Assembly (NCBI RefSeq): GCF_963921235.1
Contig: NC_086108.1
Location: 21,824,001 to 21,888,000, forward strand
Reading direction: 5' to 3'
DNA from: Mobula hypostoma
Lineage: Eukaryota
Length of the DNA: 64,000 bases
Shown here: piece by piece, positions 1 to 61,492 of the stretch
Numbering within the stretch: the stretch's first letter is position 1
Layout of the letters: every line of letters begins with the position of its first letter
Translations under genes and position numbers: made by a program
The notes under the pieces: model-generated
What the model saw: only the letters and a program-made list of their open reading frames with translations
The model's database searches: none
What the model was told of the DNA's origin: nothing

Positions 1-763
1 TGTTGTATTGATCAGATTTATTATCATTGTTATTCGACATGATGTCTAAAACTTTGGCAAATTTTTATGGATGTGTAGTGGAGAGTGTATTGACTGGTTG
101 CATCACAGCCTGGTATAGAAACACCAATGTCTTTGAACAGATTGTCCTATAAAAGGTAGAGCATATGGCCCAGTCCTTTGTGGGTAAAGCCCTCCCAAAC
201 TTTGAGCACATCTATGTGAAATGCTGTTGCAGGAAAGCAGCATCCATGATCAGGGACCCCCAGCACCCAGGACATGCTCTTTTTTTAACTGCTGCCAACA
301 GAAAGAAGGTAGAGGAGCCTCAGTACTTACACCACCAGGCTGAGGAACAGTAGTTACCCCTCAGTCATCAGGCTCTTGAACCTGATAACTTCAGGGGATA
401 ACTTCACTCATTTTCACTTGACCTGTCATTGCAGTGTTCCACAGTCTAATGGACTCATTTTCAAGTACTCTACATCTCATCTTCTTGATATTTATTGCTG
501 CTTTATTTATTATTATTATTATTATTCGCACAGTGCTGTCTTCTGCATTCTGGTTAAACATCCTAGCTGGGTAGTCTTTCATTGATTCTGTTGTGGTTAT
601 TATTCTATAGATTTATTGAGTATGCCCAGAAGAAAATGAATCTCAGGGGTGTATATGGTGACATATAAACAACAGGAATTCTGCAGGTGCTGGAAATTCA
701 AGCCACGCACATCAAAGTTGCTGGTGAACACAGCAGGCCAGGCAGCATCTCTAGGAAGAGGTA

Positions 764-801
764 CAGTCGACGTTTCAGGCTGAGACCCTTCGTCAGGACT
801 A
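764..801 (-). ncRNA. Minimal type I hammerhead ribozyme motif, intact core
   Basis: Minus strand reads AGTC-CTGACGA-AGG gtctcag CCT-GAAA-CGTC-GACT: stem I, CUGANGA box, stem II, GAAA box, GUC triplet, stem I'. Confidence 0.8.
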
Positions 802-855
802 ACTGAAGGAAGAGTTAGTAAGAGATCCAAATCTCTTCCTAAATCTTCGTTCAGT

Positions 856-893
856 TAGTCCTGACGAAGGGTCTCGGCCTGAAACGTCGACTG
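856..893 (+). ncRNA. Minimal type I hammerhead ribozyme motif, intact core
   Basis: AGTC(857-860) CTGACGA(861-867) AGG..CCT(868-880) GAAA(881-884) CGTC(885-888; predicted cut after 888) GACT(889-892). Confidence 0.82.
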
Positions 894-999
894 TACCTCT
901 TCCTAGAGATGCTGCCTGGCCTGCTGCGTTCACCAGCAACTTTGATGTGTATGGTGACATATAGTTACTTCAATAATAAACTTACTTTGAATTTTGACA

Positions 1000-2050
1000 G
1001 ATGATGTGTGCTGTGCTGTTTTGTTGCTGCAGTACCGCGTAAAGAGGTAAAATTACTATAAATTACAAAAGTGTAAAAGAAGGTGTACATGAACCTTTCA
1101 GAAATCTGGTGGAGGGGAAGAAGCTGTGTTTAAAACATTGAGTGTGGGTCTTCAAGTTTCTGTACTTCCTCGCTGATGGTAATACTGCAAGAAGGTATGT
1201 CCCAGATGGCGAGGGTCTTTAATGATGGATTCTGCTGCCTTGAACCACTGACCCTAAAGCTGTCTTGCGCCACTCTGTGTATTGGAGGCTGTGTACAAGG
1301 CTGTAGTAATGCTAGTCAGTTTACTCTCTCCCATATACAGGTCGACCTTCACTAATCTGGCAACCATTAGGACCTGAGGAGTGCCGGATTAGTGAAAATG
1401 CCGAATTACAGAAGGATCACATTAAGCATAATCAGTGCCGGATTTTCAAAGGAACAAGATTACAGGTAGTTAGATTAGTGAAGGTCGACCTGTATCTGGA
1501 AGAATTGGCAAGAGTCTTTGGTGACGTAATAAATCTTGTCAGATTCCTAATGAAGTATAGCCACTAGTACGCCTTCTTCATGATTGCATTAATATATTGG
1601 GCCCAGGATATATCTTCCGAGATGTTCATGACCAGGAATTTGAAGCTGCTCACCCTTCCCACCACTGAACCCTTAATGACTGAAAGTTTCTTGATTTTCC
1701 TGTCATGAGTTCCACAATCAATTCCTTGCTCTTGATGACTTTGAGTGAGGTTGTTGATCTTTTCAAATGATCTGTCTCACTTCTGTACACTACCTCATTG
1801 CCAACTGAGATTCTGGCAACAACAGTGGTGTTATTGGTGAATTTATCATTGGTGTTTCATCAGTGCTTAGCCACACAGTCATGAGTGTAGAGACGTTTCC
1901 TGTGTTGATTGTCATTAAGGAGGAGATGTTGTTACTGATCGGCACTGATTGCGGTTTCCTGATAAGGAAGTCGAGAATCCAGTTACAGTGGCCTGGGTTT
2001 TGAAGTTTGGTGATTAGTACTGAGGGAGATGATGGTGTTAAACACTAGAT
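1000..2050 (-). mobile_element. Rex1/Babar-like LINE fragment, old
   Basis: Reverse complement resembles the + strand copy at 30900-31700 (ccaggaatttgaagctgctcaccct, ctcagtgcttagccacacagtcatgagtgtag). No long ORF. Confidence 0.65.
1338..1492. mobile_element. Tc1/mariner (pogo/Tigger-like) MITE, 155 bp
   Basis: TIR CAGGTCGACCTTCACTAATC...GATTAGTGAAGGTCGACCTG with TA on both sides. A second copy lies at 34333-34486. Confidence 0.9.
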
Positions 2051-2674
2051 TTAGGTACGTTTGTATAATTGCACAGAATATGGTGTTTGTTAGTTATCTG
2101 CAAGCACAAATAGCTCTGTGGGAATATAATGTCCTGCCAATAAAAGAAAAATGATGGTGAGTTGACACTTAATATTCACAGGTACAAACTATAATTTTAC
2201 TTCTCAATATGGAATTGAATATATTTTAAGTGCGCTTAGTTTCAGGGTTATGAGAAAAGGGTAGGGAAATCGAGCTGACTGGATGGGTTGATGAAGATTT
2301 GTCGCAGACTCGTGTTTTCTCATCTTGGATGTATTTTTAGGTTCCAGGATTTGGCTCCAATTCAGTACAAATGTCAGTAGCTGAGAAGATGTGTCTGGGG
2401 GTTTGAAAATGAAGAGAATTATTTTTGTCACAGAGTATAATTTACTTGAACTAGATCAGTGGTAGGACAATTTAGGAGTTTAAATTAATCCACATTAATT
2501 CAGGGTCAAGTTAGCTGTTGCGAGTTATCATTTCCAGATCATTGTCTTTGAGCAGATGTGAACACTATAGTTATGATTTTTTTTTCTGTTTTGCTTCAGA
2601 TGGGAACTGGATAAGTTCTTGAGAGGGTATGGATTTTTCTGGAACTATGAATATCTGTAGTTTAAAAGAATAAT

Positions 2675-2805
2675 ATAAAAATCCTGAAAATAATCAGCAG
2701 GTCAGGGTACATCTGTGGGACAAGATAAATAAGCTAATGTTTAACATCTAAGACCTTTCGTTTGAACTGTCTGATGAACAGTCTTCAACCTGCAATGTTA
2801 ACTCT
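2675..2805. mobile_element. Old Penelope-type fold-back remnant with decayed hammerhead
   Basis: cagcaggtcagg..catctgtgg arm followed by ctgatgaacagtcttcaacctgcaatgttaac (CUGAUGA box retained, GAAA box mutated). Confidence 0.5.
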
Positions 2806-4440
2806 TTTGAGGTCAGGCAAACTGGCTTATAATTTCCTTTCTTCTGCCTCCCTTCCTTCTTGAAGGCCGGAGAACCATTTGCAATTTTCCATTCCTCTGG
2901 AATCATGCCAGAATCTAGTGATTCTTGAAAGATTATTACTAATGCCTCCACAATCTCTTCAGCTACCTCTTTCAGAACCCTTGGGTGCAGTTCATCTGAT
3001 CCGTGTGACTATCTACCTTCAGACCTTTCAGCTTCTCAAGTAATAACAATTAAGCTTACTTCTGCCCCCCGACACTCTCAAACTTCCGGCAAACTGCTAG
3101 TATCTTCAACAGTGTAGATGGATGCAAAATACTTATTTATTTCATCCACCATTTCCTTGTCCCCCATTACTACCTCTGCAGCATCATTTTCCAGTGGTGT
3201 GATATCTACTCTTGCCTCTTTACTCTATATAAATCTGAAAAAAACTTTCGGCGTCCACTTTGATATTACTGGCCATCTTTATGTTTCATCTTTTCTTTCT
3301 TTATGACTTTTTCTTACTAGCTCTTCCTTCAGTTAGTCCTGACGAAGGGTCTCAGCTCGAAACGTCTACTGTACCTCTTCCTAGAGATCCTGCCTGGCCT
3401 GCTGCATTCACCAGCAACTTTGATGTGTGTTGCTTATGACTTTTTTAGTTGCCTTCTGTTGGTTTTCCCAATCTTGTAACTTCCCACTAATTTTTGCTGT
3501 ATTATATGCCTTCTCTTTTGTTTTATTGTTTTTGACTTCCCTTGTCAGCTACAGTTGTGTCGTCCCGCCTTTAGAATACTACTTTGGTTTGTATCTATAT
3601 TGCACATGCTGACTGCCCCTCTGCCCCCAAGAATCTCTCGCCATTACTGTTCTGCCATCATCCCTGTCATCCCTGGTATCCTCTTGCAGTCAACTTTTGC
3701 CAGCTCTTCTCTAACGCCTGTAATTCCCTTTACTCCACTGTAATATTGATACATCTGATTTTATCTTCTCCCTCTCAAGCTGTATGGTGAAGCCTATTGT
3801 ATTATCACTGCTCCTAAGGGTTCCTTTACCTTAAGCTCCCTAATCAAATCTGGTTCATTGCACTACACCTAATCCAGAATTGCCTTTTCCCGAGTGTGCT
3901 CAATTACAAGCTACTCTAAAAACCCATCTAATGGGTATTCTACAAATTCTCTGACTTGGAATCCAACTCCAACCTGGATTTTCCCAATTTACCAGTATAT
4001 TGAAATCCCCCATATCTATCATAACTTTGCCCTTTGACATGCATTTTCTATCTCCCGTTGTAATATGTACCTTACAGCCTGGGTACTGTTCAGAACCCTG
4101 TATATAACTCCTATCAGGGTCTTTCTACCCTTGCAGTTTCTTAACTCTATCCACAAGGATTCTATATTTTCTGATAATATGTCACCTCTTTCTGAGGATT
4201 TGATTACATTTTTTTACTAACATCCACCCACCCCTTCTGCTGACCTGTCTAACCTTTCGATACAATTTGTATCCTTTGATGTTAAGCTTCCTACTATGAT
4301 CTTCTTTCAGCCTCAATTCAGTGATGCCCACAATGTCATACCAACCAATCTCTTAAATACGCTAGAAAGTCATCTACTTTATTTTGTATACTTTATGCAT
4401 TCAATATAACATCTTCTGTCCTTATTTGTCACCCTTCTTG
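2806..4440 (-). mobile_element. CR1 LINE ORF2 fragment, decayed
   Basis: ORF 2748-2951 reads EALVIIFQESLDSGMIPEEWKIAN..FKKEGRQKKGNYKPVCLTS, the CR1 pre-RT signature. Homologous to 49740-49900. Confidence 0.85.
3313..3433 (+). mobile_element. Solo Penelope pLTR fragment with hammerhead motif and 12-bp TSD
   Basis: agtcCTGACGAagggtctcagctcGAAAcgtctact; TSD TTATGACTTTTT at 3301-3312 and 3434-3445; inserted into the CR1. Confidence 0.85.
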
Positions 4441-6569
4441 ATGGATTTTCTAAAACAAATTTTAAAAGATTCAGTGACTCATAATCGAATGACACCAAAC
4501 TGAAAATGTTATTCTTTCTTTAATCAAGAAAAGGATTTCTCAGTGAATTTACAGCCTGAATAGCTAAGCTTAAATTCCAACTGAGGAGTTCAGAGTTTAC
4601 TGATCTCATAAAATAAATTTGTTTTAGTTGGTCACAGTGTACCTGCAATATAAATGGAAAATTCAGTAGAATTTCTTCACTGTGGAGTTATCCTATGTTG
4701 AAAATGCCCATGTGTTCATGTTAGGCAAGGAGTAAAGAGATATATCGCTGTATCTTCTGTCACTGGTCAGTATAACAGTTAATTTTTAATAATGTCTACT
4801 TCAAATGATGTGTCCTGCATCGTCTTACACAAAGCAAATGACAAAACAGGTGTCATTACTTGGTATAGTGCACCATAGTATTAGTGGATACATGTAAGCT
4901 TTCATCTTATACACCACATTTGGGGTATTGTTAATCATAGCAAATTGTAAACTTGTTTGGGACTACAAAAAGTTTAAAATTAAAAAAAAAGGCAAATGAG
5001 TTATTTAGGAGCACCGATGCTACAAACAGCGAATAAATACCAGCAGCAGTCCTCAAAACATACTTCACATACTGAAAACAATTTTCTCATTTCAGTAAAT
5101 ACAACATTGTATTTGGTTCTTTTGCATTATACAATTGAATTCCCAATTCCCAGAAGGCATGAATAAGCCTTCTATTTTGTTGCAACAAAAATGCTTATTC
5201 TTTATTTTTTTGAGGTTCATTCAAAGCGTTGGCTTTTCATATCTACAGTTTCTATTCAACAACCATAGGGTGACATCGTTACTATCTTCTCTTGAGGCAA
5301 AATTTGCGATTAATTTAGGGAAACTCCTTGTGGCCTCCACATTCCATACCCACTATTTTACATCATATTAAAAGTGATTTATACGTTTCAGAAGAAGACT
5401 GAAATTTCACAATTGATGATAAGCCCCATGGTCTGCTCAGATAATCAACTAAGCTGTCCATGGTTAAATTCTTATTGGCTAGAGCCCAGTATTCCAACAT
5501 TTGGTATTATCAGCATATTATTAAAGCCATTTCCTCATAAATTCACTTTGACCTGTTAAAGATTAAACATTTACACAAACAAAACATGAAGCATGACTTC
5601 ACAAATACTTCAGCATTTAATTTAGGGAGGACATCCTGTTTTGTGCCACCAGACATAGTCCATTGCATGAGAATCAGTGCTTGACTTGGTGACAGCGCTT
5701 ATTTTAATAATAAAAATTTCAAAGGAAAAGAAATAAATGGGAAATGAAAAACAGAACCACAAAAGTAAAATGTCTGTTTCGATGCAGAAATGTGAACTAA
5801 AAACTGAAAATGCTTGAAGTATTCAGCAGGCCAGACAATTTCTATGTAGAGTGAAACACTGTTTAGCTGTCATTAGGCAAAAGGAAGATATGCAATTAGA
5901 AGGAAGGGAAAACAGATTAAGTAACAAGAAGTGTGATTAATGAAAGGTTGTGGAACTGTACTAGATGTAAATGCAAACTAACCATCCAAAGGAAAATGAT
6001 GGGTATGCCATAACTGTAAAATAAAATTGCCAGAAATTATTTTTACTGGAATTTGCAAAACAAATGCTAGGTCAGGGTTCAGGGGTTTTTCTATCAAAAA
6101 TTAACAACTGGAATTTTTGGAATAATCAAATGACTTATGACCGTTCTCATGATTCTGTGATGGATCCTGCACACAACAGCCATTAGCAAATATGCTTTAT
6201 TCTGGAAGCAACACACAAAGCTAATCAGGATTTAAAAAAAAATCCAAACTTAGAACAATACCTGACCATAATTCAATTGAGAGATGAACTGACCCTCCTT
6301 GCTAATTTCAACACAAAAGTGAAATTGACATAAGATTTCCAAGAAGGTACAACAGGCACGTAAAGGAAAAGGCAAGCAAACTCTAAGGAAGTCCTCCGTG
6401 TTATAAATCTTTAAAACAAGCAACACTTAGTTTCATCAGTGAGCTAAGTCCAAGATCTCATGGCACCAACTCTTGATTCAGTCAGAGGCATGTGTTTGAT
6501 TACCTCATTGCTGCAAAAGTGTCTACGTCTTCTATGCCTTAATTGGAGATGATGACACCCTAATTCCAG

Positions 6570-7540
6570 GATGTTAAATCACATGGGATCAAGGGCAAAC
6601 TAGCCAAATGAATACAAATTAGCTTGTAATAATGTGAGTCAGAGGGTTGTAGAGGAGTCCAGTTTTTCCTGACTGGAAGCCTGTGGCCAAATGTGTACCA
6701 CAGAGACAGGTGCTGTTTATCATTTATATTGAGATTGTAGATACCATGGTAAGTTTGCAGATGACACTGACATTGGTGGTAGAATGAACAGTAAAGGTGG
6801 TTATCAAGGACAGGATCTTGATCAATTGGCCTATTTGGTCAAGGAATGGCAGACAGAGTTTTATTAACATAAACGCAATGTGTTTCATTCTGGTCAGTCA
6901 AGCCAGGACAGGATGTACCTATTGAATAGTAGGGCATTGGGAAATGTAGAACAGAGAAATCTGAGGGTGCAGTGACATAGTTCTTTGAAAGTGGTGATAC
7001 AGGTAGATAGGATGATGAAGAAGCCCTTTGGCACCTTCTCCTTCATCGGTCAGAATATTGAGTATAGAATCTAGAAGGTCATGTTATAGCTGTACAAGAC
7101 ATTGGTAAGGCCCCATTTGGAGTGCTGCATGGAGTTCTGAACAGTCTACTCTACAAAGTTTACTATTTGATTAGGAGAGCCTGCATCAAGGAGGCCTGCA
7201 TTCTCTGGAGCTTAAGAGAATGGAATTTGATCTCAATGAAAAGTTTTCCCTGTCTGAGAAGTCTAAGACTAGTGGTCACTGTCTCAGAATAAGAGGTAAA
7301 CCGTTTGGGTTGAAATGAAAATAAATTTCTTCAATCAGAGAGCACGAATCTTTGGACATCACTTACATAAAGGTCTATGGTCATTAAATTGATTCAAAAC
7401 TCAGATTGAATAATTTCGGGATATGAAAGAGAAGTTATGCTTCTGGGATGGTGTAGGAAAATAGAACTGTGGTTTGAAGATTCATGATATTGATAAATGA
7501 CAAAATAGGCTCCAATTGGTTGACTACTGCTCCTTGTTCC
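6570..7540 (+). mobile_element. CR1 LINE 3' fragment, heavily decayed
   Basis: aagtttgcagatgacact (KFADDT), ctgtacaagacattggtaaggccccatttggagtgctgc (LYKTLVRPHLEC); many stops. Confidence 0.8.
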
Positions 7541-8204
7541 TGGGTCATGTCAGGCCATGCCATTCTAGGATAAAGCCAGGTTAGAATGATTTGTTTAGTA
7601 TTACTGCAAGGGTCCTCTCTTTTTGATCAATATTAGGCATATCATCCTCACAGATCAATACAAAATCGGAGACATATTTTGTTGGTTGATTTTTGTCATG
7701 GAGAATATAATTTCAAACATTTTGGCTCAGGTTGACTTTAGATTGTCTGCTAGTGAATCAGGTTTAAACTTCATATCTGATCAAACTTCCATAACATAAA
7801 CCGAGATTGTTCTTATCACCACCCCACCCGCCACCATTCCTCTTGCTTCAATGCTTATAGTTATTAATTCTGAAGAGCTTTTGATTTGTAGTGATTACCA
7901 TAAATTATGGTGAATAATCAGAGGTACTTGATGTGGGTTAAGTATTTCTCAGTTTCTCTTATCTACAGTATTCACCCTAGATGACTCAAGTGCTTGGAGG
8001 GAACCAAAGGATTAGTTACTTGGTTATCACTAAAATATCCAACAGCTTCTAATGATTTTGGAAGGGACAGCTTTCCTGTGAAAACAAATGTATTCTTTTA
8101 TCATTTATGGGAAATAAACCTTCTGTCTCTAAATAAATAAACAAACCCACAGATCAGGCTTCAATTTTGCATCTGTTTGCAAGTATTCATTCGTCAAAAG
8201 CAAT

Positions 8205-9990
8205 TAGAAGCATAGAAAACCTACACCATCGGATAGAACCATCATTTCAACTTGGCGAAACAACCCTGGAAAACATGGACCACTTTCCGTATCTTGGAAG
8301 TCACCTCTTCTCCAGCGTCGACCTTAATGACGAGATCCAACATCGTCTTAAGTACGCTGGAACAGCTTTTGGATGTCTCTGAACAAGAGTCTTTCATGAT
8401 CGTGACATCCGAACAGATACCAAAATGTTAGTGTACAAAGCAGTGGTAATCCCACCACTCCTGTATGCATCAGAAACCTGGACTACATACCGACGACATC
8501 TGAAAGCACTTGAAAAGTTCCATCAATGCTGTCTCCGAGACATCTTAAATATCAGCTGGGAAGATAGAAGAACCAACGTCAGTGTGCTAAATGAAGCAAA
8601 ACCAACAAGCATTGAAGCCTACGTCATCAAGAACCAACTAAGATGGAGCAGTCATGTTGTTCGGATGAAAGACGAACGTCTGCCGAAACAAATCTTCTAC
8701 TCCCAGCTTAAAGAAGGCAAACGTAAAAGAGGCGGACAACAGAAGGGATTCAAAGACGTCTTAAAGCCAACATGAAGAAATGTAACATTGACATCAACAA
8801 TTGGGAAACCAATGCCAAGGACAGGAAACTCTGGCAAGCCATCATCCGAGAAGGAACAGCAACTTTCGAAGCCAATGGATGTGCAGAATTAGAAGAAAAG
8901 AGAAGAAAATGGAAAGAGAGGCAGCAACAACCAAAGCCCGATCTGCCATCTGGAACTACCTGTCCTAAATGCGGAAGAACTTTCAAAGCCAGGATTGGAC
9001 TCATAAGCCACTTGAGAGCCCATAAGTAGATCAACAGAATGAAGACCATCATCCTCGACCTCGAGGGATAGCCATGTCAATGACGACGACACCACTATAC
9101 AGGCCCTTTGGCCCACAAAGTTGTTCTGAACATGCCCCTCCCTTAGAAAATACTAGGCTTACCCATAGCCCTCTGTTTTTCTAAGCTCCATGTACCTATC
9201 CAAAACTCTCTTAAAATATCCTATCGTATCCACCTCCACCACCGTTGCCAGCAGCCCATTCCACGCACTCACCGCTCTCTGCGTTTTTAAAAAAAAACTT
9301 ACCCCTCGCATCTCCTCTGTACCTACTCCCCGGCACCTTAAACCTGTGTACTCTTGTGGCAACCATTTCAGCCCAGGGAAAAAGCCCTTGGCTATCCACA
9401 TGATCAATGCCTCTCGTCATCTTATACACCTCAATCAGGTCACCTCTCATCCTCCATTGCTCCAAGGAGAAAAGGTCGAGTTCACTCAACCTGCTTTCAT
9501 AAGGCATGCTCCCCAATCCAGGCAACATCCTTGTAAATCTCCTCTGCACCCTTTCTATGGTTTCCACATCCTTCCTGTAGTGAGGCAACCAGAACTGAGC
9601 ACAGTACTCCAAGTGGGGTCTGACCAGGGTCCTATATAGCTGCAACATTACCTCTCGGCTCCTAAATTCAATTCCACGATTGATGAAGGACAATACAGTG
9701 TTAACCTTCTTAACCACTGAGTCAACCTGCGCAGCTGCTTTGAGCTTCCTCTATATAGGGACTCGGACCCCAAGATCCCTTTGATCCTCCACGCTGCCAA
9801 GAGTCTTACCATTAATATTATATTCTGCGATCATATTTGACCTACCAAAATGAACCACTTCACACTTATCTGTGTTGAACACCATCTGCCACTTCTCAGC
9901 CCAGTTTTGCATCCTATCAATGTCCCGCTGTAACCTTTGACGGCCCTCCACACTATCCGCAAGATCTTCAACCTTTGTGTCATCAAATTT
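8205..9990 (-). mobile_element. CR1 LINE 3' portion (its extreme tail 8205-8228 is split off by the RTE insertion)
   Basis: ORFs 9211-9717 (LYRTLVRPHLEYCAQFW..IERVQRRFTRM) and 9751-10032 (LQRDIDRMQNWAEKWQMVFN..KCEVVHFG). The 3' UTR closely matches 26003-26350. Confidence 0.92.
8229..9088 (+). mobile_element. RTE-clade LINE, 5'-truncated, relatively young
   Basis: ORFs 8167-8382, 8425-8775 and 8772-9029 give FPYLGS, LLYASETWT, QLRWSSHVVRMKDERLPKQIFYSQL and a terminal C2H2 motif CPKCGRTFKARIGLISHLRAH. (GAC)n tail. ACACCA duplication at 8223-8228 and 9089-9094. Confidence 0.9.
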
Positions 9991-10724
9991 GGTTAAAAAT
10001 TGTGGGATTCCTTTAATGAACCTGCAAAGCATCTACAATGTTGTGTATTTTTCCCAATTTAGCCACAAAACTCAGTCAGCATTTTCAGCCAACAAAATGT
10101 AATCTTCTCAGGATATTGATTACAGATAGGAATGTTTAGGGAAAGGATTGGTACACTAACTACTTTGATCTTAAAGCCTTCTTGCAGATTCAATTCTAGG
10201 TTGCATGCTTCAAGAACTTTCTTATCTGCCAGCATTCAATCATATGCAATAAAATATAATTTAAGAATAAAAATTAATGGCCCAATTGCGCTTTGATCAG
10301 ACTAAACCCCCATCAACCCCTCAATCTGAAGGAAGCAATTCAAAAACCATACTTGAAAGCATGAAGGATGATTACTGAGATTTCATTTCTCCGTGACAAG
10401 TAGGACTAGCCACTGCTAAAATACAATGAAGTTCTGTTAATCTGGCACACTTAGTAGTGGTGCCAGACTGGCAGATTTTTCATACTATTTGATGTTATTC
10501 CAAATTGCAGAATTTGGAGAATTATTGGTCATAATGTTTCAATGAATTGCCTACAATCTCATAGGGGAAAAAACTGAGAAACTGCAGCAGTGTTAAATTT
10601 CAAGTCTTGCAGATGTTGACCAGCATATTATTTCCTCTTCATTATGTTAAGGATAATCTTAACTGGACCCAGAAACTATAGTATTAACAATTGCCACTAT
10701 TGGCTTTGTTTCCTGTCAGTCCTG

Positions 10725-10965
10725 CTCCCCCTGTCTGAAACAGATCTGTGGAATTCATTGCCACATGCATATGTGGAGACCAAGAGCTAGATAGGTTCTT
10801 GATTAATCAAGAGCTAGATAGGTTTTTGATTAATCAGGATGTGAAAGGTTTTGAGGAGTGGCAGGAGAATAGAGTTGAGAGGGAAATGGATCAGCCATGA
10901 TAAATGGTTTAGCATACTAGATGGGCTTAATGGCTTGATTCTGGTCCTATCTCTTATGATCCTAT
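10725..10965 (+). mobile_element. CR1 3' end fragment containing a 27-bp tandem duplication
   Basis: ctgtggaattcattgccaca..gatcagccatgat..; caagagctagataggtt(c/t)ttgattaat occurs twice at about 10781-10836. Confidence 0.75.
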
Positions 10966-11299
10966 AAAACATCTTTTCCTGGATCCTGCTGCTTTTCACA
11001 GAAAACTATGAGCTTTTGATCATAAATACATGTGTCAATTGTAATTTCTTATGTAATTTAATTTCATAAGTAAGAAATTACTGTTTACTGTTTGGTGTGA
11101 TTAAGTGGGATTAATTCTCTGAGTGCAATTATTTAGATTAGATGCAATGTTTCTCTCTGCTTTCTGAGCAACTGTTTGGAAACTTGGCTAAGGTCTGCTG
11201 ACATTTCCAAACTAATAAAAATGACTCATTTTGCACTTATTATAGGTAATCATTCTCAGAACAGTCATTTGATTTTGCATTGCATTTCTGAGAGACAAA

Positions 11300-12365
11300 T
11301 GTGATTAGTATATTTGTGGATGACATAAACTTGATTGTATTGTGATTAGCTAGGTTGTCAAAGGCTACCTCAGGATATGGATGCGATGGAAAGTTGGACA
11401 GTGTGTTTGCAGATGGAATTTAATTCCAACAAGTGCAAGGTAATGCGTTTTGTTCAGTCAAATAAGGGTAAGAGGCATTGAGAGAATGGTAAGGTGCTAA
11501 GAAAGATTGATGAACAAAGGGAACTTGGGGTTCAAGTTCATACTTCTCAGAAAGCGACAGCACAGTAGATAGTGTGGTGAAGAAGGTATATGGCAAGCTT
11601 GCTTTCATTGACCAAGTCACAGAATATAAAAGTTGGTATTTAATATTGCCACTTTACAAACCATTAATTAGACTGCAGGCAGAGAGGTGTATGCCGTTCT
11701 GGCACCATAGTATACAAAGAATGTGGGTTGTGATGGAGAGGATAGAGTCGGATGTTGCCAAGATTGGAGGGCTTTAATTAAAGGAAGCGATTGGATAGGC
11801 TAAGCTTGTTTTTGTTGGAGGAAACGAGGCTAAGGGGTAAACTGATTGAAGTTTATAAAGTTGTCAGAATAAGGTAGATAATTTTTTTCCATGGTTGGAG
11901 TATCATAAACAAGAGGGTACAGATTTATGGTTAGAGGAAGGAGATTCGAAGGGGAATTTTTTTATGTAGTGAGCGGTAGATATTAGAACATGCCACCAGA
12001 GTCGGTGGTTAAATCAGATACAATCACTACATTTAAGAGATATTTAGACAGATGGTTGGGTTGAGTTATTTTCTGATCTTGGCAATTTCCTTGCAAATGT
12101 TTTGTCACCATGCGAGGAGACGACATCAGTGCATTGTGATGCTCTTCATATGGTGACAAACCGTTTGCAAGTAAATTGCCAAGATCAGAGAGCAACACAA
12201 CCCAACCATCGACACTTGAGCTACACATTTTCTGAATTTTTTTCCATTTTGGCGAGTATTTGAATTGGCAGTGCAAGGAAGGACATGGACCTAATGTGGG
12301 GAACTGGGATTAGTATAGCTGGGCAAAAAGGTTGGCATGAATGTGGTGGAATGAACTACCTATTT
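11300..12365 (+). mobile_element. CR1 LINE 3' fragment, decayed, interrupted at 12051-12243
   Basis: tggcagatggaatttaat-like motif; ORF 11574-11777 VKKVYGKLAFI..LYKPLIRLQAE. Confidence 0.8.
12051..12243. mobile_element. Fold-back mini-element of a second Penelope-like family, with decayed hammerhead motifs
   Basis: 12051-12115 is the imperfect reverse complement of 12146-12210. Minus strand reads tgca-CTGATGt-cGTCtcctcgcatggtGAC-aAAAcatt-tgca; the right arm has gtgac-aaaccgtt-tgca. Confidence 0.7.
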
Positions 12366-12404
12366 CTGTGCTCTTTGATTTGTTGTCTCTGCATGACTTA
12401 TTTT

Positions 12405-14660
12405 CTGGATTTTTGAGTGAATGACGCTTGGATGGGTCAGAATTTGTGTGGTGCAAACAAAACAATCTCCTTTTGCTATATACAGAGGAACCAACTGGGG
12501 TAGGAATACTGGACCTCATAGAAATGAGGCAGGCTAAGTAATTGAACTGGCAATTGAGGAGCACTTTGGGTCCACAATTCTCTCAATCTTATAATAGGCA
12601 ACAAAAAAAAGATAGAGCAGGTCCACATGTTAAAGTCCTGAACTGGAGCAGGCCCAACTTTGATGACATTAAGCAGGATCTTGCTGGGGCCGATTGGTAT
12701 CTCTATCTAAAGGCAAAGGAACAATTGGCAAGCAGGAAGTTTTTGAAAGGGTCATATCAGAGGTCCAAGGGCAGCATGTATCTTTTAGTGTGAAGGGTAG
12801 GAATTTGAAGCTCAGGGAACCCTGGCTGATGAGAGATTTTGAGGCTCTGGTAAGGAAAAAGCAGAAAATGTGGTTCTTCAGTCACATTAACAGTAAACAG
12901 GTGATTTGGTCTTCTGTAGATTACCAGGGTTGCTTATGTGTAGAGCCATAAGAAAGGGCTGAGGTTTTTGTATCTCTATTTCTCTTTGGCATTTACTAAG
13001 GAGAACATTATGGATGCCAAAAAAAAATAAGGGTAATAAGTAGTGACATCTTGGATCATTGGTATATTAAGATGGAAGAGATATTTGCTGCCTTGAAGTG
13101 CATTGAGATGGTCACATCTTCAGGGCCTGACCAAGTGCATCCCCAGACCTTAAGGGAGACCAAGGAAGAAGTCAGAGGCCCTTGTAGAGATACTTGCTTT
13201 GTTGTTAGCCACTGGTGAAGTTTTAGAAGACTGGAGGGTGGCTAATATTGTTTCATTGTTCAAGAAGGGTAGCAAGGACAGGTCAAGGAATTAAAGGCCA
13301 GTGAGCCTGACCTGACTTCAGCTGAAGGAAAATTATTGGAGAGAATTCTGTCGGACAAGATCTACCATCAGTGTGTGGGAGGCCTGTCAAATCTTTTGGA
13401 GTGTTTCAAAGAGGTAGGTAAGGGAATTGCTGGAGGTAGGACAGTAGATGTCTATTTGGACTTCAGTCAGGCCTTTGACAAAGTCCCACATAGCAAGCTG
13501 ATTTTAAAGGTCAGATTGTATGGGATTCGGGTGGGTGGGAGCAACTGAGGTAGATTCAGAACTTGCTCTATGTTTGGAATTAGAGGGTGATGGTTGAAGG
13601 CTCATTCTCTGAATGGAGGCCAGTGACTAGTGGAGTGCCCCAGGGGTTGATGTTCAGACTTCTGTTATTCATTACTTATGTAAATTGCATGGTAGCATAG
13701 TGGTTCGTGTTATGCTTTACAGCACCAGAGAACAAGGTTCAACTTCCATCACTGTAAGGAGTTTAAAAGTTCTCCCTGTGACTGGGTGGGTTTCTTCCGT
13801 GTGCGCCGGTTTCCTCCCATATTCCAAAGACATACAGGTTAGCATTAGGAGTGGCGCATGCTATGTTGGCCCCAGAAGCAGTCTGCTTGCCGTCCGACCA
13901 CAGCATATCCTCAATTCTGTTGGTCCTTGATGCAAACAATGCATTTCACTACATGTTTTGATGTAAACAAATAAAACTAATCTTCTAAATCAGTTGGATA
14001 TGGATGTACATGGCATGAATAGCAAGTTTACTGGATGTGTTGTTGATAGTGAAACAGTTTACAATAACTTACAAAGAGATTTTGATCAGTTAGGGCTGAA
14101 GAATGACAAATCGATTTCAACTTATCTAAGGGTAAGGTGATGTATTTTGGATAGTCAAAACAATGGAAGACCTATTCTGTGAATGGCAGGGCACTGACAA
14201 ATGTTATCTTGTAGAACAGAGGGACTTGGGAGTGCAAGTGACAGTTTACTGAAAGTGACCATACAGGTTGGTAAGATGGTGAAGAAGGCATTTAGCATGC
14301 TGGCCTTAATTCAGTCAGACCATCAATTTAGGAGTTAGGACTTTATGATGCAGTTATACAACTTGGAGTATAGTGCTCAGTTTTGGTCACCCTGTTACAG
14401 GAAAGACATTGTTAAGCTGGAAAAGATACAGTAGAGATTTCTGAAGATGCTGCCGGGACAAGAGGGCCTGACATATAGGGAGAAGTTAACCATGCTGTAT
14501 TTTTATTCCCTGGAGCACAGGAGAATGAGGGGTGACCTAGGAGTTTATAAAATTATGAGGAGTAAGGCTTGCAGAGTAATGGGCTGAATGCGGGCAACTT
14601 GGACTTGTAGGGAGGGTGCTGTGGTTGCCATGGACTAGCTGGTTTGAAGGGCCCATTTCC
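12405..14660 (+). mobile_element. CR1 LINE ORF2 fragments with internal deletions, decayed
   Basis: REPWLMRDFEALVRKK; VYLDFSQAFDKVPH (ORF 13336-13548); agtggagtgccccagggg (SGVPQG). Confidence 0.85.
13686..13990 (+). mobile_element. tRNA-derived V-SINE (HE1-like)
   Basis: A box tagcatagtgg, B box ggttcaact, V-domain-like core gtgggtttc..ccggtttcctccca..tccaaagac, tail aaataaaactaatctt. Confidence 0.75.
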
Positions 14661-15399
14661 CTTCTGGATTATTCCAGAGTAGACTGGGATCCTATGTCAG
14701 GATGAAATCTTTTTTTTCATATTGATAGACAGTGAAGCCACTTTCATAGCTTTCAATGTTGTTAGAATTCATTTGTACTAGGAAGTTGTAATTTTGAAAT
14801 TTGTCTGAAATTTCGTTCTGCTATTTTGCCTGTTTTATCCATTTATATCTCTTCCCTAAAATTATGCATTGCCTTATCCAGGTCACCACTTAAAATGTGT
14901 GACCTTGACCTGACTCCAACAAGGAAAGGAGTTGGGATAGGGAATGCCGATATTGTACCTGGAAACTTCACATCAAATAGCTGTTGTTAGAGGGCAGTTG
15001 GTGGAGCTTGACAGCCTGTTTACCTTTTTGAAAGCATAGTGAAACTGGCTCTAGTTTTGTGACTAATGTTAGTAAAATCAGGACAAATTGTGATTTGAAC
15101 TTTTGTCCAAGCAATTGATCATTATGGAAACCCATCAAGTCTTTGTCTCCTCTAGTGGCAATCTTATTCAATGAGTGGCTGAGCCACATGCATCTGAAAG
15201 TTGTTGACATCAATTTTTATTTATATTTAAAGGAGAATAAAATTGATCATGTCCCTGACTTGGTGGATGTATAGCTAAAATTCTGGGTGCTCTCATCAGG
15301 ATTGGACAACATTAGATTGATTTGTGAATTATTATGTGGTTTCATATTATGATATCATCAAGAGGTACAATATGAATAATAACTGTGTGCATGAAACAG

Positions 15400-16670
15400 G
15401 CCTCATAAGAGACTCCAGATCCTGCAATCTGCAAAAAAATTAGCAGAATGCTAGATTATCTCTGAGGTAGAAGTGGACGTTTTAGTTGGGACTCTGCATC
15501 AGAGTGGAGAGGGAAGATGGAAGATGACCAGTAAACATTTATCTCCAGGTTATGAACACCCAACTTGCGGACATCCATGCATATTAACAAACTCCCATAT
15601 TTTTAATAAATTTGATAGTTCAATGTACATACGTAGAACTGATTTCCTCTTTCCCTATTTACTTTTAGTAATTGTTCTTTATCAGTTGTTTGTTCTTTGA
15701 TGCCTTTTCTTGCAATACTCCAGATGCATGGTTATGACATTGAATGGTATTCATATATTTTCTGACTTGGGGACTAAATTGACCCAAGGGTGTCTGTAAA
15801 GCGAGAAGGTACTTGTTACCCAGGAACTGTCAATATAACATTATGGGTGGGTTAGGATAGTGGCTGATAGGTTAAAAGTGGAAGCAGATGGAGTGGGGAT
15901 GTGAGATGAAATTATGTGCAGGAGGGGGTGGAACTAAATGAGGTGATAGGCAGATGGTATCAAGTAGAGGAAAGGGAGAGAAAAAAACACAACAAATGGA
16001 ATGGAATATAAGGTATTCTTCCAATTTGCATTTGGCCACTCCGCAGCAATGGAGAAAACCAAGAGCAGACAGGCTAGTGTGAGAGAGAAGGAAAAGTTAG
16101 AATAATATATAACCAGAAGCTTGATCTGGCCATTGCAGACAGACTACATGTTCTGCACAAAACATTTGTCTGTTCTTGTTTTCATCCCTTGCTCCACAGT
16201 CGGAACAGCAATGGAGTTCCTCATCTTTCACTCCATGAGCCTCTGCATCCAACACATCATTCATTCTCCACCATTTCCACCAGCTTGATCATAATCCTAC
16301 CACTAGTGATACTTCCTCTTTGTTCCCCTGCGTGCCATGGTAGCATAGAGGTTAGTACGACGTGATTACAACTCAGGGCTTCGGAGTTCAATTGCTGGGT
16401 GGTGTGGCTAGAAGGGCCTACACTGCACTGTATCTCAATTTATAAATAAATCTCACTCCCCACCCCCCTTCTGCCAGGACAGCTCTTCTGAGGACTGCTT
16501 ATCCCACCCTGCCCACCCCTCCCCAACCTCTGACACTTCCACCTATGAAAGTATAACACCTGTCCTCCTGTCCCCTCATCACCTCCCTTACCACCATCCA
16601 GGAATCTTAACACCTCCCCAAGATGGACAGACGCTCCCTTGCATATCTTCCAATCTGTCAACTTGCTAGA
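15400..16670. mobile_element. Old Penelope remnants (minus about 15400-16165, plus about 16190-16670) with an inserted DNA-type MITE (about 15540-15830) and a short SINE (about 16330-16440)
   Basis: ggaatataaggtattcttccaatttgcatttggcc resembles 40577-40615; gcctctgcatccaacacatcatt and cctccctcaccaccatcca resemble the RT-EN linker of the 40.1-41.8 kb copy. Confidence 0.55.
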
Positions 16671-18367
16671 CAGCCTCTTCTACTTTACCCATCCTTTACA
16701 GATATAGATTCAGGAATGACTGAGATATCTATCGACTCTTTTAGCCCAGCAGTTTTGAGCACAGTTAGTGCTGTCTTCTCATTGGGCCAATTGAGGGCAT
16801 AAGTGTGTCAATTTAAAATACTTGAAAAAACAAAGACTGGAAATTCTCAATAGCTTTGGTAGTACAAAGAAATAATGTTAATTTTCTCAGCCAGTGATGC
16901 TTTCGTAGTTCAGCTGCATTGATCCCTGTTGCCTCTTCCCAGTGGTTTCTGTTTGTATTTCAGATTTTCAGTAACTGAGGATATTTTAGTTTTGAATCTT
17001 TGGTGGAAATTGCTATAACTTTTATTAACATCTCCAGAACCACAGTCAATTTTTGTAAGTATTGGTATTGTGTTGATGAACACTTGAGGTGAATGATTAT
17101 TCATTGTTAAGTTTGCTTCAATTTATTTAATAATGTAGCTATTTATGACTAAAATAGGTAATTATTTAACTGCTTTTTTTAGTGGCTTTGTGGACAATAT
17201 TTTGTGCGTGAAATATGTGGAATTAATTTTCTGGAAAGTGGCATGGGTAGAAGATTACAGAGAAAAATTGTGGGCTGTACTATTGTTAATGATCCATGGG
17301 GCAGATGAAAGGGTCTGGAAAGAAGTATTTCTTTGGCTTGCTTGAGTCTCTTACCCTTCGGGTGTCTTATGATTATAACTACTTTTACATTGTTGTTTGT
17401 GATATTTTATGTGATAACAGGAGATTTACAATCCATGTAAGCATATGGTTCATCAGTATCTTTAACACTACCAAAACACTTTGCTGTTTCTATGGATTTT
17501 CACCGAGTATTGTTCATGATTTTTCAAAGAACAGTTGTTGGCCATTTTAGAGTAAAGGATAATTAAATATTTCACTCAGTCAGATTTCATGTTGAAACTT
17601 GCCACTTGCACTGTTCAATTTCATGTGTCTGCCTTCAACAGGTTCTGAAAACAGCTAGAGCTGCTGATGCAGTTTCCTGCACTGTAGCAACTTTGTTCAA
17701 ATTGTGCAAGTGCCATTACAAGGCTTTAACAAGAGTGCTTAAGATCTTGAGGTATTGGAAGACTGATGTTCAGTCCAGAACTCTTTTAGTTGCTTCATCA
17801 ACGTGCAAGTTTTCCTTTTGGCTTCTTTTTCAAGCGTATTTGGGATTCAGGCTGCATATCTCTCCATCCTCAGTGGCAATTCTTCAGCTCAACCGGAAGT
17901 GTAGGTCTGGAAATCAAAGATGTCTATCTCTGAATTAATCAGTGGAAAAACATTATGCAAGTATGCAGGAGGTCCTAAGCCCTGTTTTATCCCTCTATTA
18001 CTGGCAGCCAAGCCTTTGGGTGTTTTAGTCCCTGGATTTGGAATTCCCTTTCTTCTCTCAACCTTACTATTTTTTCCATTAAGATTCTGTTTCAGACACA
18101 CCATGGACCAAATGTTTGATTACTCTTTTCATAATGCTTGCATTTGTTTGATAATATGCCTGTTAATATTTTATTGCACCAAATATGCTAAATTAATGTG
18201 TTGTTTTTGTGTACTTTTGTGGTATTAATTTTATACCCCCAGTGTAACACTTTTCCTATTGTTATTGTCTTTAGTCGTGAAAAGTCTCTGATGTTTAAGT
18301 AGATAACTCTTTTGTGTGCTGACTTTGGTGAAAATTTTAAATTATAAAGGATGTTGATGGCATTGTC

Positions 18368-18655
18368 AAACGAAAGAAAATCAGCAGATGCTGGAAATCC
18401 AAGCAATACACACAAAATGCTGGAGAAACTCAACAAGTCAGGCAGCATCTATGGAAACCAGTACAGTCGACGTTTTGGCCCTAGACCTTTCAGCTGCTTA
18501 GATGCTTAAATGCTGCCTGGGAGGAAACTGGAGCACTTGGAGGAAACAGGCGTGGTCACGGAGACAATGTATAAACTCCTTTCAGATAGCAGTGGAAGTG
18601 AATTCTGGTTCACTGGCACTGTAAAGTTAAGCTAATTTTTAAGCTACCATGTTGC
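18368..18655 (-). mobile_element. Penelope pLTR fragment (18368-18495) abutting a V-SINE 5' fragment (18518-18655)
   Basis: aaaatcagcagatgctggaaatccaagcaatacacacaaaatgctgg..cagtcgacgtttt; then gggaggaaactggagcacttggaggaaac. Confidence 0.7.
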
Positions 18656-19267
18656 CCAAGTTAGTGCATAATATTGATAGAGTATTACGGTACAATTAGA
18701 TGCAGTAAGAGCTGTTTCATTATGGTGGTTTCTGCTGATAATGGTGCGTATGATAGTTGGAGCAGAAAATACTGCAGAAACTAGAAACACAAAACCAATG
18801 AAGAGAATGGAAAATGCCACTGTTGATGTGTTTGGTCTAAATGCTGTTCTGAGCTATTCGTGGAAGCATCATTAACGGAAGAGCTGGCAAGGTATTGCCA
18901 AACAAGACCTAACCTACACTTGTTCATGGGTCCTAGGGTAGTGTTTTCCCCATTGTTGGTTTACCTGGACAATTTCTCAATTGAAAGAGCACTTTTGCAC
19001 ACAAGAAATATGTCACCTCAGATTGCCCGATTGATGCAACCTATAGTGAATGCAAGGGTATACCATGTTTTGATTTGATATGTAATCTTATTTTCATACA
19101 AAGGTTCATTACTTCTACATTTATTGACCATCTCTAAAGTAACCCCTACAAGGCTGATGAACTTCTTGCAATGATCACCTCTGACCCAATGATGAAAGAA
19201 AAGTAATGGATGAAAAAGCTGAAGCTAGCTGATCAGGGAAACTGCCCTGAACAGCATTTGCAGCAGT

Positions 19268-20020
19268 ATACTTTATACTTTATTGTCTCCAAACAATTGA
19301 TACTAGAACGTACAATCATCACAGCGATATTTGATTCTGCGCTTCCCACTCCCTGGATTACAAATATTAAATATTAAAAATAGTAGAAATCAGTAAATAT
19401 TAAAAATTTAAATTATAAATCATAAATAGAAAATAGAAAAATGGAAAGTAAGGTAGTGCAAAAAAACCGAGAGGCAGGTCCGGATATTTGGAGGGTACGG
19501 CCCAGATCTGGGTCAGGATCCGTTCAGCAGTCTTATCACAGGTGGGAAGAAGCTGTTCCAAAATCTGGCCGTACGAGTCTTCAAGCTCCTGAGCCTTCTC
19601 CCGGAGGGAAGAGGGATGAAAAGTGTGTTGGCTGGATGGGTCGTGTCCTTGATTATCCTGGCAGCACTGCTCCGACAGCATGCGGTGTAAAGTGAGTTCA
19701 AGGACGGAAGATTGGTTTGTGTGATGTGCTGTGCCTTGTTCACGATCTTCTGCAGCTTCTTTCGGTCTTGGACAGGACAACTTCCATACCAGGTTGTGAT
19801 GCACCCTAGAAGAATGCTTTCTACGGTGCATCTTTAAAAATTAGTGAGGGTTTTAGGGGACAGGCCAAATTTCTTTAGTTTTCTTAGGAAGTAAAGGCAC
19901 TGGTGGGCCTTCTTGGCAGTGGACTCTGCTTGGTTGGACCAAGTCAGGTCATTTGTGATGTTGACCCCGAGGAACTTAAAGCTTTTGACCTGTTCCACTT
20001 GCGCACCACCGATGTAAATT
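19268..20020 (-). mobile_element. Rex1/Babar-like LINE 3' end, young
   Basis: ORF 19513-19743 AQHITQTNLPSLNSLYTACCRSSAARIIKDTTHPANTLFIPLPSGRRLRSLKTRTARFWNSFFP; short (AAGTATA)-type tandem tail; CpGs retained. Confidence 0.88.
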
Positions 20021-20099
20021 GGTATTTACATTGGTATTTTGGGATGTTTGCCTCTTAAATGACAAGTTGTAACTCTAATCATTGAAGTATTTTTCTTTC

Positions 20100-20376
20100 C
20101 CTCTTCATGCCATGCACTGCACTTATCAGATACCTTCTTCTCCAGCCCTTTGCCTTTCACCTCCCAGCTTCTTACTTCATCCCCCCTCCACCACCCACCT
20201 GGCTTCACTCATCACCTTCTTGCTAGTTCTCTTTCCTCCATCCCCCCCCACCCCCACCGCCCCATGCCTTCCTTTTTAGTCCTGAAGAGTCTTGGCCTGA
20301 AACTTCAAATCTTTATTCGTTTCCATAGATGCTTGACCTGCTGAATTCCTCCTCCAGCATTATTTGTGTGTTGCTT
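20100..20376 (+). mobile_element. Penelope pLTR fragment, decayed hammerhead
   Basis: Pyrimidine-rich tract, then ttagtcctgaagagtcttggcctgaaac..ccagcattatttgtgtgttgct. Confidence 0.7.
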
Positions 20377-20519
20377 AAGATTTTTTGGGTTTATTAGTTG
20401 CATATTTGACCATATATTGTGAGGGGCAGTCTCTTTTAACTTCCCTCTAGAATTGAGCTGTTTGATCTTGTTTCAAACAAGGTTGTGATAAGGTCTGGAG
20501 CCAGGTGGTCCTGATGAAA

Positions 20520-21900
20520 ACAAACTGTGAATAATTAAGCAGTTTATTGGTATGTCCACATGATAGCACGCTCAATAACGCATTCCATTGCTTTGTGATG
20601 GTTGAGAGTAGACTGCAATAGTTAGCAATATCGGATCAATCCCTTCTTTTTGAACAAAACATTGTGCAGTTTTCTACATTATTGGCTAGATGCCAGTGCT
20701 TTAACTGTACTGGAGCAGCTTGACAGGAGGTACAATTCCCAAGTACAGCTCATCATTACTCCATCCAGGATGCTGTCTGATCCCATGACATCTGTCAAAT
20801 GCAGTGTTTTGCAGCCATTTATAAACATGTGAATTAGGAATGGGAATAAGCTACTCAGTTTTTTGAGTTGCTTTGCCATTCAATATGATTTGAGTCTGAT
20901 CTGATTGCATTCTCAACTCTACATTCCAGTCTGTCTTTCACCCACTTCTTAAAAATAATTTCTTGATGCCATATGAATGAATCAAATTGGCTTCTACGAT
21001 TATGAGAATTTTGTGAACTGGCTGAGATCATCAATTGGCACATCTGGTTTAACATGGTTGCAAACTCTTCACTGCTGTCTTTTATCCATGTATGTTAGGT
21101 CTTGCCATCACTGAGGGTGAGGATGATTTTGGAGCTACCCCCTTGCCAAGGTATTTAATATCCACGATTTATGATAAGCTGTGGCAGGACTACAGAACTT
21201 TGTGATCTTCACTCATGATTGTGGGATTGCTTAAATCTGTTCCATTTTGCATTTGCTGCTTAGCGCATGTCATCTTGTCTTGCAATTTCACCAGGTTGGC
21301 CCCTTATTTTTAGGTGTGCCTCGTACTGTTCTGCTCATTGAACCAGGGTTGTCACGGTTGTTCTCCAGGCCTGATTGTGACGATGGAGTGGGTGAGATAT
21401 GCTGAGCATTGTAGCTAGGGATTGTAATGGTGTAGACTTCTGCTGCTGTTGATACTTCATTGTTGTTCCTCATCGCATGTTATGGCACATTGGGCAGCAA
21501 CCTTGCTGTTTCTTTAATGTTTGTCTGTTTTCTAAGAGGCCAAATTGCTGGCTCAGTGCTCAGTCCTGCACAGATGGAAAGCGTGCAAGGATCTGGCCTG
21601 ATTTGAACCCGGACCCACTTTCCACGAAGTCCATTGCGGATGCGACTACACCACCAGCTGACTAGGTTGATATTCCATTGCGTCTTAAACCAATAGCATC
21701 TGTTCATCCATCCAGTTTTCATGCACGATGAAATGTTTCCTCATTGAAACGATGGGGCTCTGCAAGTAGGATATGATGGCTGCACCTACTGTGTCTGTTC
21801 TGAACAGGTGTATTTGCAACTGCTGGACTTGTGAGGTGGTGATCAAGTCCTCCTCTAGATCAGGGGCCCTGATGTGTACATGGTATTCAAGATGCAGCCT
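20520..21900 (-). mobile_element. Very old LINE (CR1-like) fragments
   Basis: actgatggttgagagtagactg-like, ccagtgctttaactgtactggagcagcttg and tcaccaggttggccccttatttttaggtgtgcc motifs; no ORF. Confidence 0.5.
21460..21665 (-). mobile_element. tRNA-derived SINE (body related to 48677-48937)
   Basis: Minus strand: A box tggtgtagtcg, B box ggttcaaatc, body gagccagcaatttggcctcttagaaaa, (AAC)n-like tail. Confidence 0.7.
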
Positions 21901-24894: not shown

Positions 24895-25075
24895 AAACTC
24901 TGAAATAAAAAGAGTGCTGGGGATACACAGCAAGACAGTCAGCATCTGTTGAGAAACAGTTAATATTTTGATTGATGATCTTCAGTAAGATTCTGATGAG
25001 TAATCAACTTGAAATGTTGATTGTTTTTTTTCTTTCGAATGATGCTACCTGATCAGCTGAGTATTTACAACAAGC
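24895..25075. mobile_element. Old Penelope-type fold-back remnant with hammerhead boxes
   Basis: gtgctggggatacacagcaagacagtcagcatc versus gatgctacctgatcagctgagtatttacaaca; between them CTGATGAgtaatcaacttGAAAtgtt. Confidence 0.55.
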
Positions 25076-26002: not shown

Positions 26003-26355
26003 TAGAAACATAGAAAACCTACAGCACAATACAGGCCCTTTGGCCCACAATGTTGTGCTGAACATGTCCCTACCTTAGAAATTACTAGGCTTACCTATAG
26101 CCCTCTATTTTTCTAAGCTCCATGTACCTATCCAAAAGGCTCTTAAAAGACCCTATCGTATCCGCCTCCACCACCATTGCCGGCAGTCCATTCCACGCAC
26201 TCACCACTCTCTGAGTAAAAAACTTACCCCTGACATCTCCTCTGTACCTACTCCCCAGCACCTTAAACCTGCGTCCTCTTGTGGCAACCATTTCAGCCCT
26301 GGGAAAAAGCCTCTGACTATCCACACGATCAATGCCTCTCATCATCTTATACACT
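26003..26355 (-). mobile_element. CR1 3' end, young, 5'-truncated
   Basis: ORF 26091-26438 YKMMRGIDRVDSQRLFP..FFTQRVVSAWNGLP; tail (t)tctatgtttcta; same subfamily as 8205-9990. Confidence 0.92.

Positions 26356-61449: not shown

Positions 61450-61492
<43 letters not shown>

Follow-up and report, generated by a model that had tools for sequence, protein, structure and literature searches.

Analysis of the genomic context placed the window (the whole stretch of Mobula hypostoma DNA analyzed here, 64,000 nucleotides, positions 1..64000) within intron 1 of the long isoform of RASAL2/nGAP, on the + strand. The first coding exon of this gene lies in a CpG island (L084:4905-5037), and ends about 15 kb before the window; its product and the RASAL2/nGAP of Mobula birostris are 98% alike. 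Exon 2 begins at +123,552. The intervening intron is about 138.5 kb long, with GT and AG splice sites and matching phase, and the gene extends over about 413 kb on the + strand. The condition that the DNA be intronic, on which the initial annotation had made its proposal of host cleavage depend, therefore holds for the entire window, and motif copies on the + strand are sense to RASAL2. When 143 of the 365 open frames outside repeats in the window were searched with Pfam, no exon emerged, and the two weak matches lay below the cut-off; PDB searches gave no match. LINE-type retrotransposon fragments were found at 8383-9750, 49279-51040 and 58396-59007, with an RVT_1 domain at 49973-51037 and an ALKBH8_N-type domain at 58399-59007. 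A short open frame at 59531-59662(+) resembles what we take to be a piece of a retroviral envelope transmembrane protein.

An intact minimal type I hammerhead motif, sense to RASAL2, is located at 856..893 on the + strand. Read from the sequence, stem I is formed by 856-860/889-893, and the CUGACGA box occupies 861-867. Register counts place a bulged A at 868 and stem II at 869-872/877-880. The GAAA box lies at 881-884, and stem III consists of the ACGU palindrome at 884-887, which has no loop; the predicted cut is at 888/889. Both the loop-less stem III and the predicted cut position had been proposed previously and are borne out by the sequence. The 38-mer of 856-893 recurs identically within the 64-kb window at 40190-40227(-), differs by a single loop change from 764-801(-) and shows four differences from 3334-3371(+). 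Thus, the three motifs annotated as intact were confirmed, and the near-intact copy annotated at about 3335-3371 was recovered one position upstream. The CUGANGA and GAAA core boxes, a NUH cut site and an open stem I are present in the copies at 856, 764 and 40190. For two intact copies, a double hammerhead can be drawn in which every pair is standard.

Comparison of 213 copies clarified the build of stem II, in which a bulged A is followed by GGGU/GCCY closing a 4-nt loop. The base pair of the bulged-A register holds in 192/213 copies, in contrast to 99/213 for the A-U register drawn in the initial annotation, so the bulged-A reading is preferred here. The motif of this family has an unpaired base after A9 and a G10.1 pair, and the bulged-A register equals the published consensus as given in the available text of PMC4209133. 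In the predicted fold of a lone copy, the sequence just 5' of the motif is able to base-pair with the CUGACGA box and with the beginning of stem II (845-870). Such an alternative hairpin would keep the monomer off.

A profile built from the motif copies themselves identified 18 copies in the window. The previously noted abundance of the motif was thereby confirmed, at 1 copy per 3.6 kb instead of about 1 per 5 kb. Profile matches were obtained at all 11 places annotated as decayed; at 2772, the motif is present on the + arm of an old inverted pair, and the profile match itself is the - arm. Three further matches were found at 5801-5863, 24911-24971 and 62918-62958. A loose core pattern gave 17 matches in the window compared to 7.0 +/- 2.8 in shuffled sequence, and 17 matches were reached in 0 of 100 shuffles. 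In 1.66 Mb, the profile gave 342 matches (0 in one shuffle) and a strict descriptor gave 29 (0 in each of five shuffles). These results indicate that the occurrence of the motif is not due to chance. The Rfam covariance models returned no hammerhead match at the gathering score or at an E value of 5 or below, probably because stem III is missing. A match to MIR1888 in Rfam reflects just the hairpin and was discarded. The loose-pattern matches at 1374, 12826, 50322, 56545 and 56906 were rejected by eye since they are without stem I or a cut-site triplet. Two copies of another repeat, at 1374-1397 and 34428-34451, match the loose core pattern; in the former, the cut-site triplet and stem I are both absent.

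The motifs at 764(-) and 856(+), annotated as two separate motifs, are both real; they are not independent, since they form the arms (667-826 and 828-950) of one head-to-head insertion with a 14-bp target-site duplication (left copy, 654..667; right copy, 950..963). The right arm (828..950, +) is a 5'-truncated pLTR end with a short 3' end, +62 from the cut site. The left inverted arm (667..826, -) has a tail of about 40 nt, which ends at +102, and holds the intact hammerhead at 764-801(-). In the same orientation, 5' of this motif (806-826, -), a TACTAAC (or TACTCAC) element, a pyrimidine tract and CAG directly precede stem I. This array, which resembles a 3' splice site, is seen across the family at large. 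The intron of the Drosophila virilis Penelope element likewise ends at helix I, according to the available text of PMC4209133.

A short pLTR-end copy (3313..3435, +) carries the hammerhead at 3334-3371, which has intact core boxes and a C-U mismatch at the first stem I pair, beside the cut site. A 5'-truncated Penelope-like element (PLE) that is 94.5% like a full-length copy is located at 40097..41818(-). It comprises a frame for reverse transcriptase (RT) and GIY-YIG that is broken by a frame change near 41120 and a stop near 40788, a 3' untranslated region, the intact hammerhead at 40190-40227 and a tail, and about 14 bp are repeated at both flanks. An older head-to-head pair spans 52921..54215 (52921-53545 on the - strand and 53560-54215 on the + strand). 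Its hammerhead at 53025-53062(-) has changes in stem III and the cut-site base, and that at 54115-54152(+) has changes in both core boxes. The profile further delimited old decayed inverted pairs at 2678..2830 and 24911..25072, a decayed copy that has lost the first core box at 18367..18494(-), a decayed truncated copy at 60629..60749(-) and a decayed copy at 62702..62802(-). Also decayed are a copy with a 3-nt stem II deletion and loss of stems I and III (20268..20380, +), an overlapping inverted pair that accounts for the positions 33400 and 33428 of the initial annotation (33323..33529) and a copy of an older subfamily (42094..42200, +).

Searching for full-length relatives of the carrier revealed a single frame of about 1,040 amino acids with an RT followed by a C-terminal GIY-YIG domain. 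Pfam analysis of one such open reading frame (ORF) of 1,043 amino acids gave RVT_1 (E value of 6e-5) and GIY-YIG (E value of 0.001), both under Pfam's cut-offs. The frame contains a YIDD motif, a CX4CxxC linker (at residue 910 of the L048 frame) and GVIY-CxxC-YIG, with two cysteines within GIY-YIG. Same-strand hammerheads 3,507 to 3,518 nt apart, in direct pLTRs, were found at 3 of 20 long-ORF loci; inverted pLTR arms also occur among the insertions. The RT and GIY-YIG frame, the location of the motif in the pLTR and the tandem and inverted pLTRs agree with the earlier view that Penelope pLTRs dispersed the hammerheads. Together, these features support the classification of the window motifs as minimal, dimer-type type I hammerheads spread by a PLE. 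Motifs of this kind have been described before (Cervera and de la Peña 2014), and the family adds a new member. The natural dimer partner of a hammerhead is likely that of the second pLTR, about 3.5 kb away in full-length elements.

The exact 34-nt core occurs in 44,945 copies genome-wide, 22,467 forward and 22,478 reverse, and the control gave 0. A first look yielded 71,901 family candidates, of which the best 150 have 96 to 100% protein identity. Judged from these counts, the family is very abundant and young. In the available text of PMC8557442 (Craig et al. 2021), the linker motif CX2-5CxxC marks Neptune or Nematis and not Penelope/Poseidon. The carrier is thus presumably of the Neptune/Nematis type, a clade assigned by motif only. 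Neptune/Nematis PLEs with an endonuclease, as described there, share with the ray element the order of RT and GIY-YIG with two internal cysteines, 5' truncation, partial tandems, inverted 5' copies and a one-sided tail of 30 to 40 bp. Poseidon, the first guess, was dropped because of the linker zinc finger, which is present here and absent from Penelope/Poseidon as characterized in the consulted literature. The first in-frame ATG lies about 140 nt past the cut site, whereas the ORF starts inside stem II in the Poseidon element PAc of Anolis (Frangieh et al. 2024, PMC11167929, as far as its available text describes). A conserved ATG, identified by eye, is positioned 21 nt past the cut site (908-910 in the window and, e.g., 42149-42151 in older copies). 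It appears to share the reading frame of the ORF start in older subfamilies and to be displaced from it by one base in the young one.

The 3' ends of the copies are bimodal relative to the cut site. Of 67 ends, 31 lie at +61 to +75 and 30 at +95 to +113, so that 61/67 fall into the two peaks that make up the signature of a one-sided 30- to 40-bp tail. According to the available text of PMC11167929, such a tail in PAc of Anolis is defined by two internal sites, downstream of the hammerhead, at which reverse transcription starts; in PAc, uncut RNA likewise serves as the template. With 3' ends at these two sites, nearly every scrap, however short, carries the motif. At the other end, none of 68 copies starts within 6 nt of the cut site. 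Among 18 loci that contain the ORF start, 17 are informative (L245 was left out): the upstream motif is retained in 12, the start lies at +21 to +86 in 5 and none starts at +1. Since copies run through the cut site, their templates must have been uncut there, and it would follow that nearly all copies derive from RNA that was intact at the ribozyme. Genome-wide raw counts of copies starting at -2, +1, +4 and +7 were 158, 398, 118 and 186, respectively. Internal microhomology or a one-base loss explains 47 of the first 100 listed matches at +1 (27, 14 and 6), and the remaining +1 starts are at control level after a rough correction for pattern strictness. The +1 excess may be a weak footprint of cutting. 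The minimal hammerhead is described in PMC4209133 as inactive as a monomer and weak as a dimer, and for the Anolis PLE the text of PMC11167929 reports cleavage only with protein, insertion that does not need cleavage and no RNA-seq ends at the site. Putative RNA contigs, which are without ends, strand or level and cannot tell repeat loci apart, were compared with window positions 1-20000 and with the full-length element; no GT-AG joint was present among the joints listed, which were 15 of 171 and 15 of 152, respectively.

Comparison of seven subfamily majority sequences revealed variable positions at 3/12 in the core, 3/18 in the stems, 4/4 in loop II and 11/15 in the linker; N7 also varies. 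A block downstream of the motif (model columns 59-83) is variable at 4/25 positions and is as conserved as the core. The paucity of changes in the core, the stems and this block suggests that, in the lineage of the element, selection acts on the motif and its downstream neighbor alike, as judged from seven small clusters that hold no true two-sided covariation. The motif may no longer be a working ribozyme even for the element and may be kept as a structural or protein-binding signal near the RNA start and the reverse-transcription starts. This reading concerns the RNA of the element itself and does not conflict with inertness in the intron. It would agree with the equal conservation of the downstream block, with genomic copies that cross the cut site without a clear pile-up of 5' ends and with the short copies starting between +19 and -60, of which 11/31 have their 5' end at -33 to -24, where the front edge of the motif lies. 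Ribozyme mutants also leave in vitro insertion unaffected in the experiments described in PMC11167929. However, the subfamily changes fall at positions that a hammerhead tolerates (N7, all of loop II and G-C/G-U swaps), and the linker varies far more than the stems. Furthermore, the motif of the Anolis PLE cuts, with core-mutant and rescue controls, in the same available account. We regard loss of ribozyme function in the element as a minority possibility.

The preferred explanation, which we hold with considerable confidence, is that the motifs are pLTR hammerhead copies of an abundant PLE, left in RASAL2 intron 1 as truncated or folded-back insertions that are likely inert passengers. A full-length element with the order pLTR-ORF-pLTR would supply two same-strand hammerheads about 3.5 kb apart, as seen at the long-ORF loci. 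By analogy with published PLEs, these would join via ACGU to form a double hammerhead on the RNA of the element itself, and the element protein would likely assist dimer cleavage, as in work on other PLEs. The copy ends show that reverse transcription begins either about 65 or about 103 nt past the cut site, and nearly every insertion therefore carries the motif; it follows that the template was uncut there. Early termination and fold-back produce the solo and head-to-head copies observed, which then appear to decay without detectable selection in the small sample studied. The one intact sense copy in the window would, by prediction, be part of double-stranded RNA in the RASAL2 transcript. Given a young family with thousands of near-identical copies, the genome itself reveals templates uncut at the ribozyme and fold-backs predicted to mask the motif.

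To the element's own use of the motif, the initial annotation had added a dispersed system in which same-strand intronic copies, for example 856 and about 3335, pair through ACGU and cut host pre-mRNA. Folding predictions were obtained for this pair. The arms 667-826 and 828-950 are predicted to pair in either transcript and form a near-perfect hairpin of about 120 bp at 703-950, with a predicted energy of -242.7 kcal/mol; each base of 857-893 is paired with the upstream arm with a probability of at least 0.997. In a + transcript, the upstream arm is transcribed first. The 856 copy, the only intact sense copy in the window, is therefore predicted to be locked in double-stranded RNA, and for this reason the window copies are likely inert. 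The two intact copies on the - strand are antisense to RASAL2 and 39 kb apart. To impose the 856 x 3334 double hammerhead on the fold of 641-3450 takes 105 kcal/mol, or 33.5 kcal/mol once the inverted arm is omitted, compared to 21 to 33 kcal/mol for the double hammerhead in the tandem arrays described below; these folding energies ignore the core's own contacts, and thus only the comparison counts. With 856 predicted to be locked, this forcing energy and the C-U mismatch at the cut site of 3334, pairing of these two copies is not borne out.

Strand distribution was determined in an intragenic sample of 1.48 Mb from seven genes (RASAL2, two paralogues and four others, the extent of the latter four being inferred from ordered PF01094 matches). 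No strand bias, for which the initial annotation had proposed a test, was found among intact intragenic copies: 12 are sense and 14 antisense (p 0.85), a test with n = 26 in which a moderate bias could go undetected. All intragenic copies together lean antisense (141 sense versus 171 antisense; p 0.10). An inverted copy is present within 3 kb for 18/26 intact intragenic copies, and among the free intact copies in these 1.48 Mb, 4 are sense and 4 antisense. One free intact sense copy lies further into RASAL2. Decay was analyzed in 41 young copies chosen by their 3' part. Changes after insertion affect 8/410 core positions and 14/492 linker positions (p 0.52), and core changes by strand are 4/168 for sense and 10/240 for antisense copies (p 0.41). 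After insertion, the core thus decays like its neighbors; among subfamilies, it varies less than the linker and is no better kept than the downstream block. With no strand bias and equal decay, no host selection for or against the core was detected, in a sample that rules out only strong effects. A host-domesticated intronic hammerhead would be expected to show selection on its core, sense orientation and conservation among orthologues; neither strand bias nor constraint on the core after insertion was seen in these genes.

These data weigh on the broader proposal that intronic copies, pairing via ACGU over kilobases or with element RNA in trans, cut host pre-mRNA to a meaningful extent. The intronic position with + copies in sense, the very high copy number and the four free intact sense copies speak for it, as does the 856 x 3334 half-site that would cut at 888/889, which has all its pairs. 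In the accounts consulted, amniotes have conserved intronic hammerheads, and Xenopus introns are depleted of tandem retrozymes. Nevertheless, the copy at +68,880, which alone besides 856 is intact and sense in intron 1, is predicted to be locked in the same way as 856, the forced dimer remains costly even without the arm and would be held by just 4 + 5 + 5 base pairs, and neither strand bias nor a sign of selection on cores was seen. Minimal hammerheads are weak even as adjacent dimers in the available text of PMC4209133. Cutting of host pre-mRNA by intronic copies is accordingly given very little weight, and the dispersed system of the initial annotation is not upheld: the named pair fails, no strand bias is present and the cores decay like their neighbors. 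A genome-wide, transposon-triggered version, in which introns hold tens of thousands of intact half-ribozymes and the free sense ones (about 3 per Mb of genes) pair together or with element RNA and protein to cut host pre-mRNAs, while fold-backs like 667-950 are exempt via their own hairpin, seems highly improbable as well. If dispersed copies did cut pre-mRNA, transposons would have a new route by which to influence host genes; the tests performed here point against it. The titles and abstract beginnings searched, which covered few subscription journals, contained no description of this family or of host-intron cutting by PLE copies.

An effect on the host, if any, might instead come from the long double-stranded fold-back hairpins as substrates of editing or small-RNA pathways and not from cleavage. 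The hairpin at 703-950 and the frequency of inverted partners near intact intragenic copies would be in line with such an effect, although hairpins of this type are a general by-product of PLE insertion, as described in the available text of PMC8557442. We consider this improbable, and likely inert passengers in RASAL2 intron 1 remain the preferred reading.

Comparison with the minimal hammerheads of metazoan PLE pLTRs, based on the available text of PMC4209133, revealed the same type I build without loop 3, with palindromic 15.2-16.2 and a short stem I, and the same extra base between A9 and G10.1. Their genomic arrangement is also alike, with mostly solo copies, some opposite-strand pairs 100 to 700 bp apart and few tandem pairs about 3 kb apart around an ORF. 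Stem II, which has 7 to 8 bp in the Schistosoma families, is 4 bp long here. A single family accounts here for about 45,000 exact copies, in contrast to 4,000 to 9,000 in coelacanth and Xenopus. Cartilaginous fish are unnamed in the consulted text of that paper; its supplements may list them. The intronic hammerheads of amniotes (RECK and others, PMC6155905, available text) are likewise intronic, of type I and of retroelement origin. However, they are single-locus, conserved and canonical, whereas the copies described here are young repeats without stem III or signs of selection. Non-LTR retrozymes, as presented in the available texts of Cervera and de la Peña (2020, PMC7229834) and Li et al. 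(bioRxiv 10.64898/2026.07.22.740005), similarly contain type I hammerheads that act as dimers. Retrozymes are tandem, whereas the window copies are dispersed or inverted.

Retrozyme-like tandem arrays derived from the element, with units of 262 and 310 nt, were identified elsewhere in the genome. At least two consecutive tandem units with complete hammerheads are absent from the window and present at both loci, L226 and L227. The 262-nt array (L227:120-660, -) contains two hammerheads, and its joint is not GT-AG. The 310-nt array (L226:270-1440; G000:C2:157816300-157818300, -) contains four same-strand hammerheads, and in its unit, ORF position +276 is joined bluntly to pLTR position -33. In the parent sequence, a pyrimidine tract and AG precede pLTR -33, and ORF +276 is followed by GT in three of six full-length copies inspected and by AT in the other three. 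Possibly, the 310-nt array represents a back-spliced circle that was copied round by the RT. If so, it shows a Penelope element giving rise to a retrozyme. Literature on back-splicing, covered by titles and abstract beginnings and few subscription journals, contained no description of the family. The exact L226-type joint occurs six times at two loci, the second of which is G000:C50:58412482-58412815.
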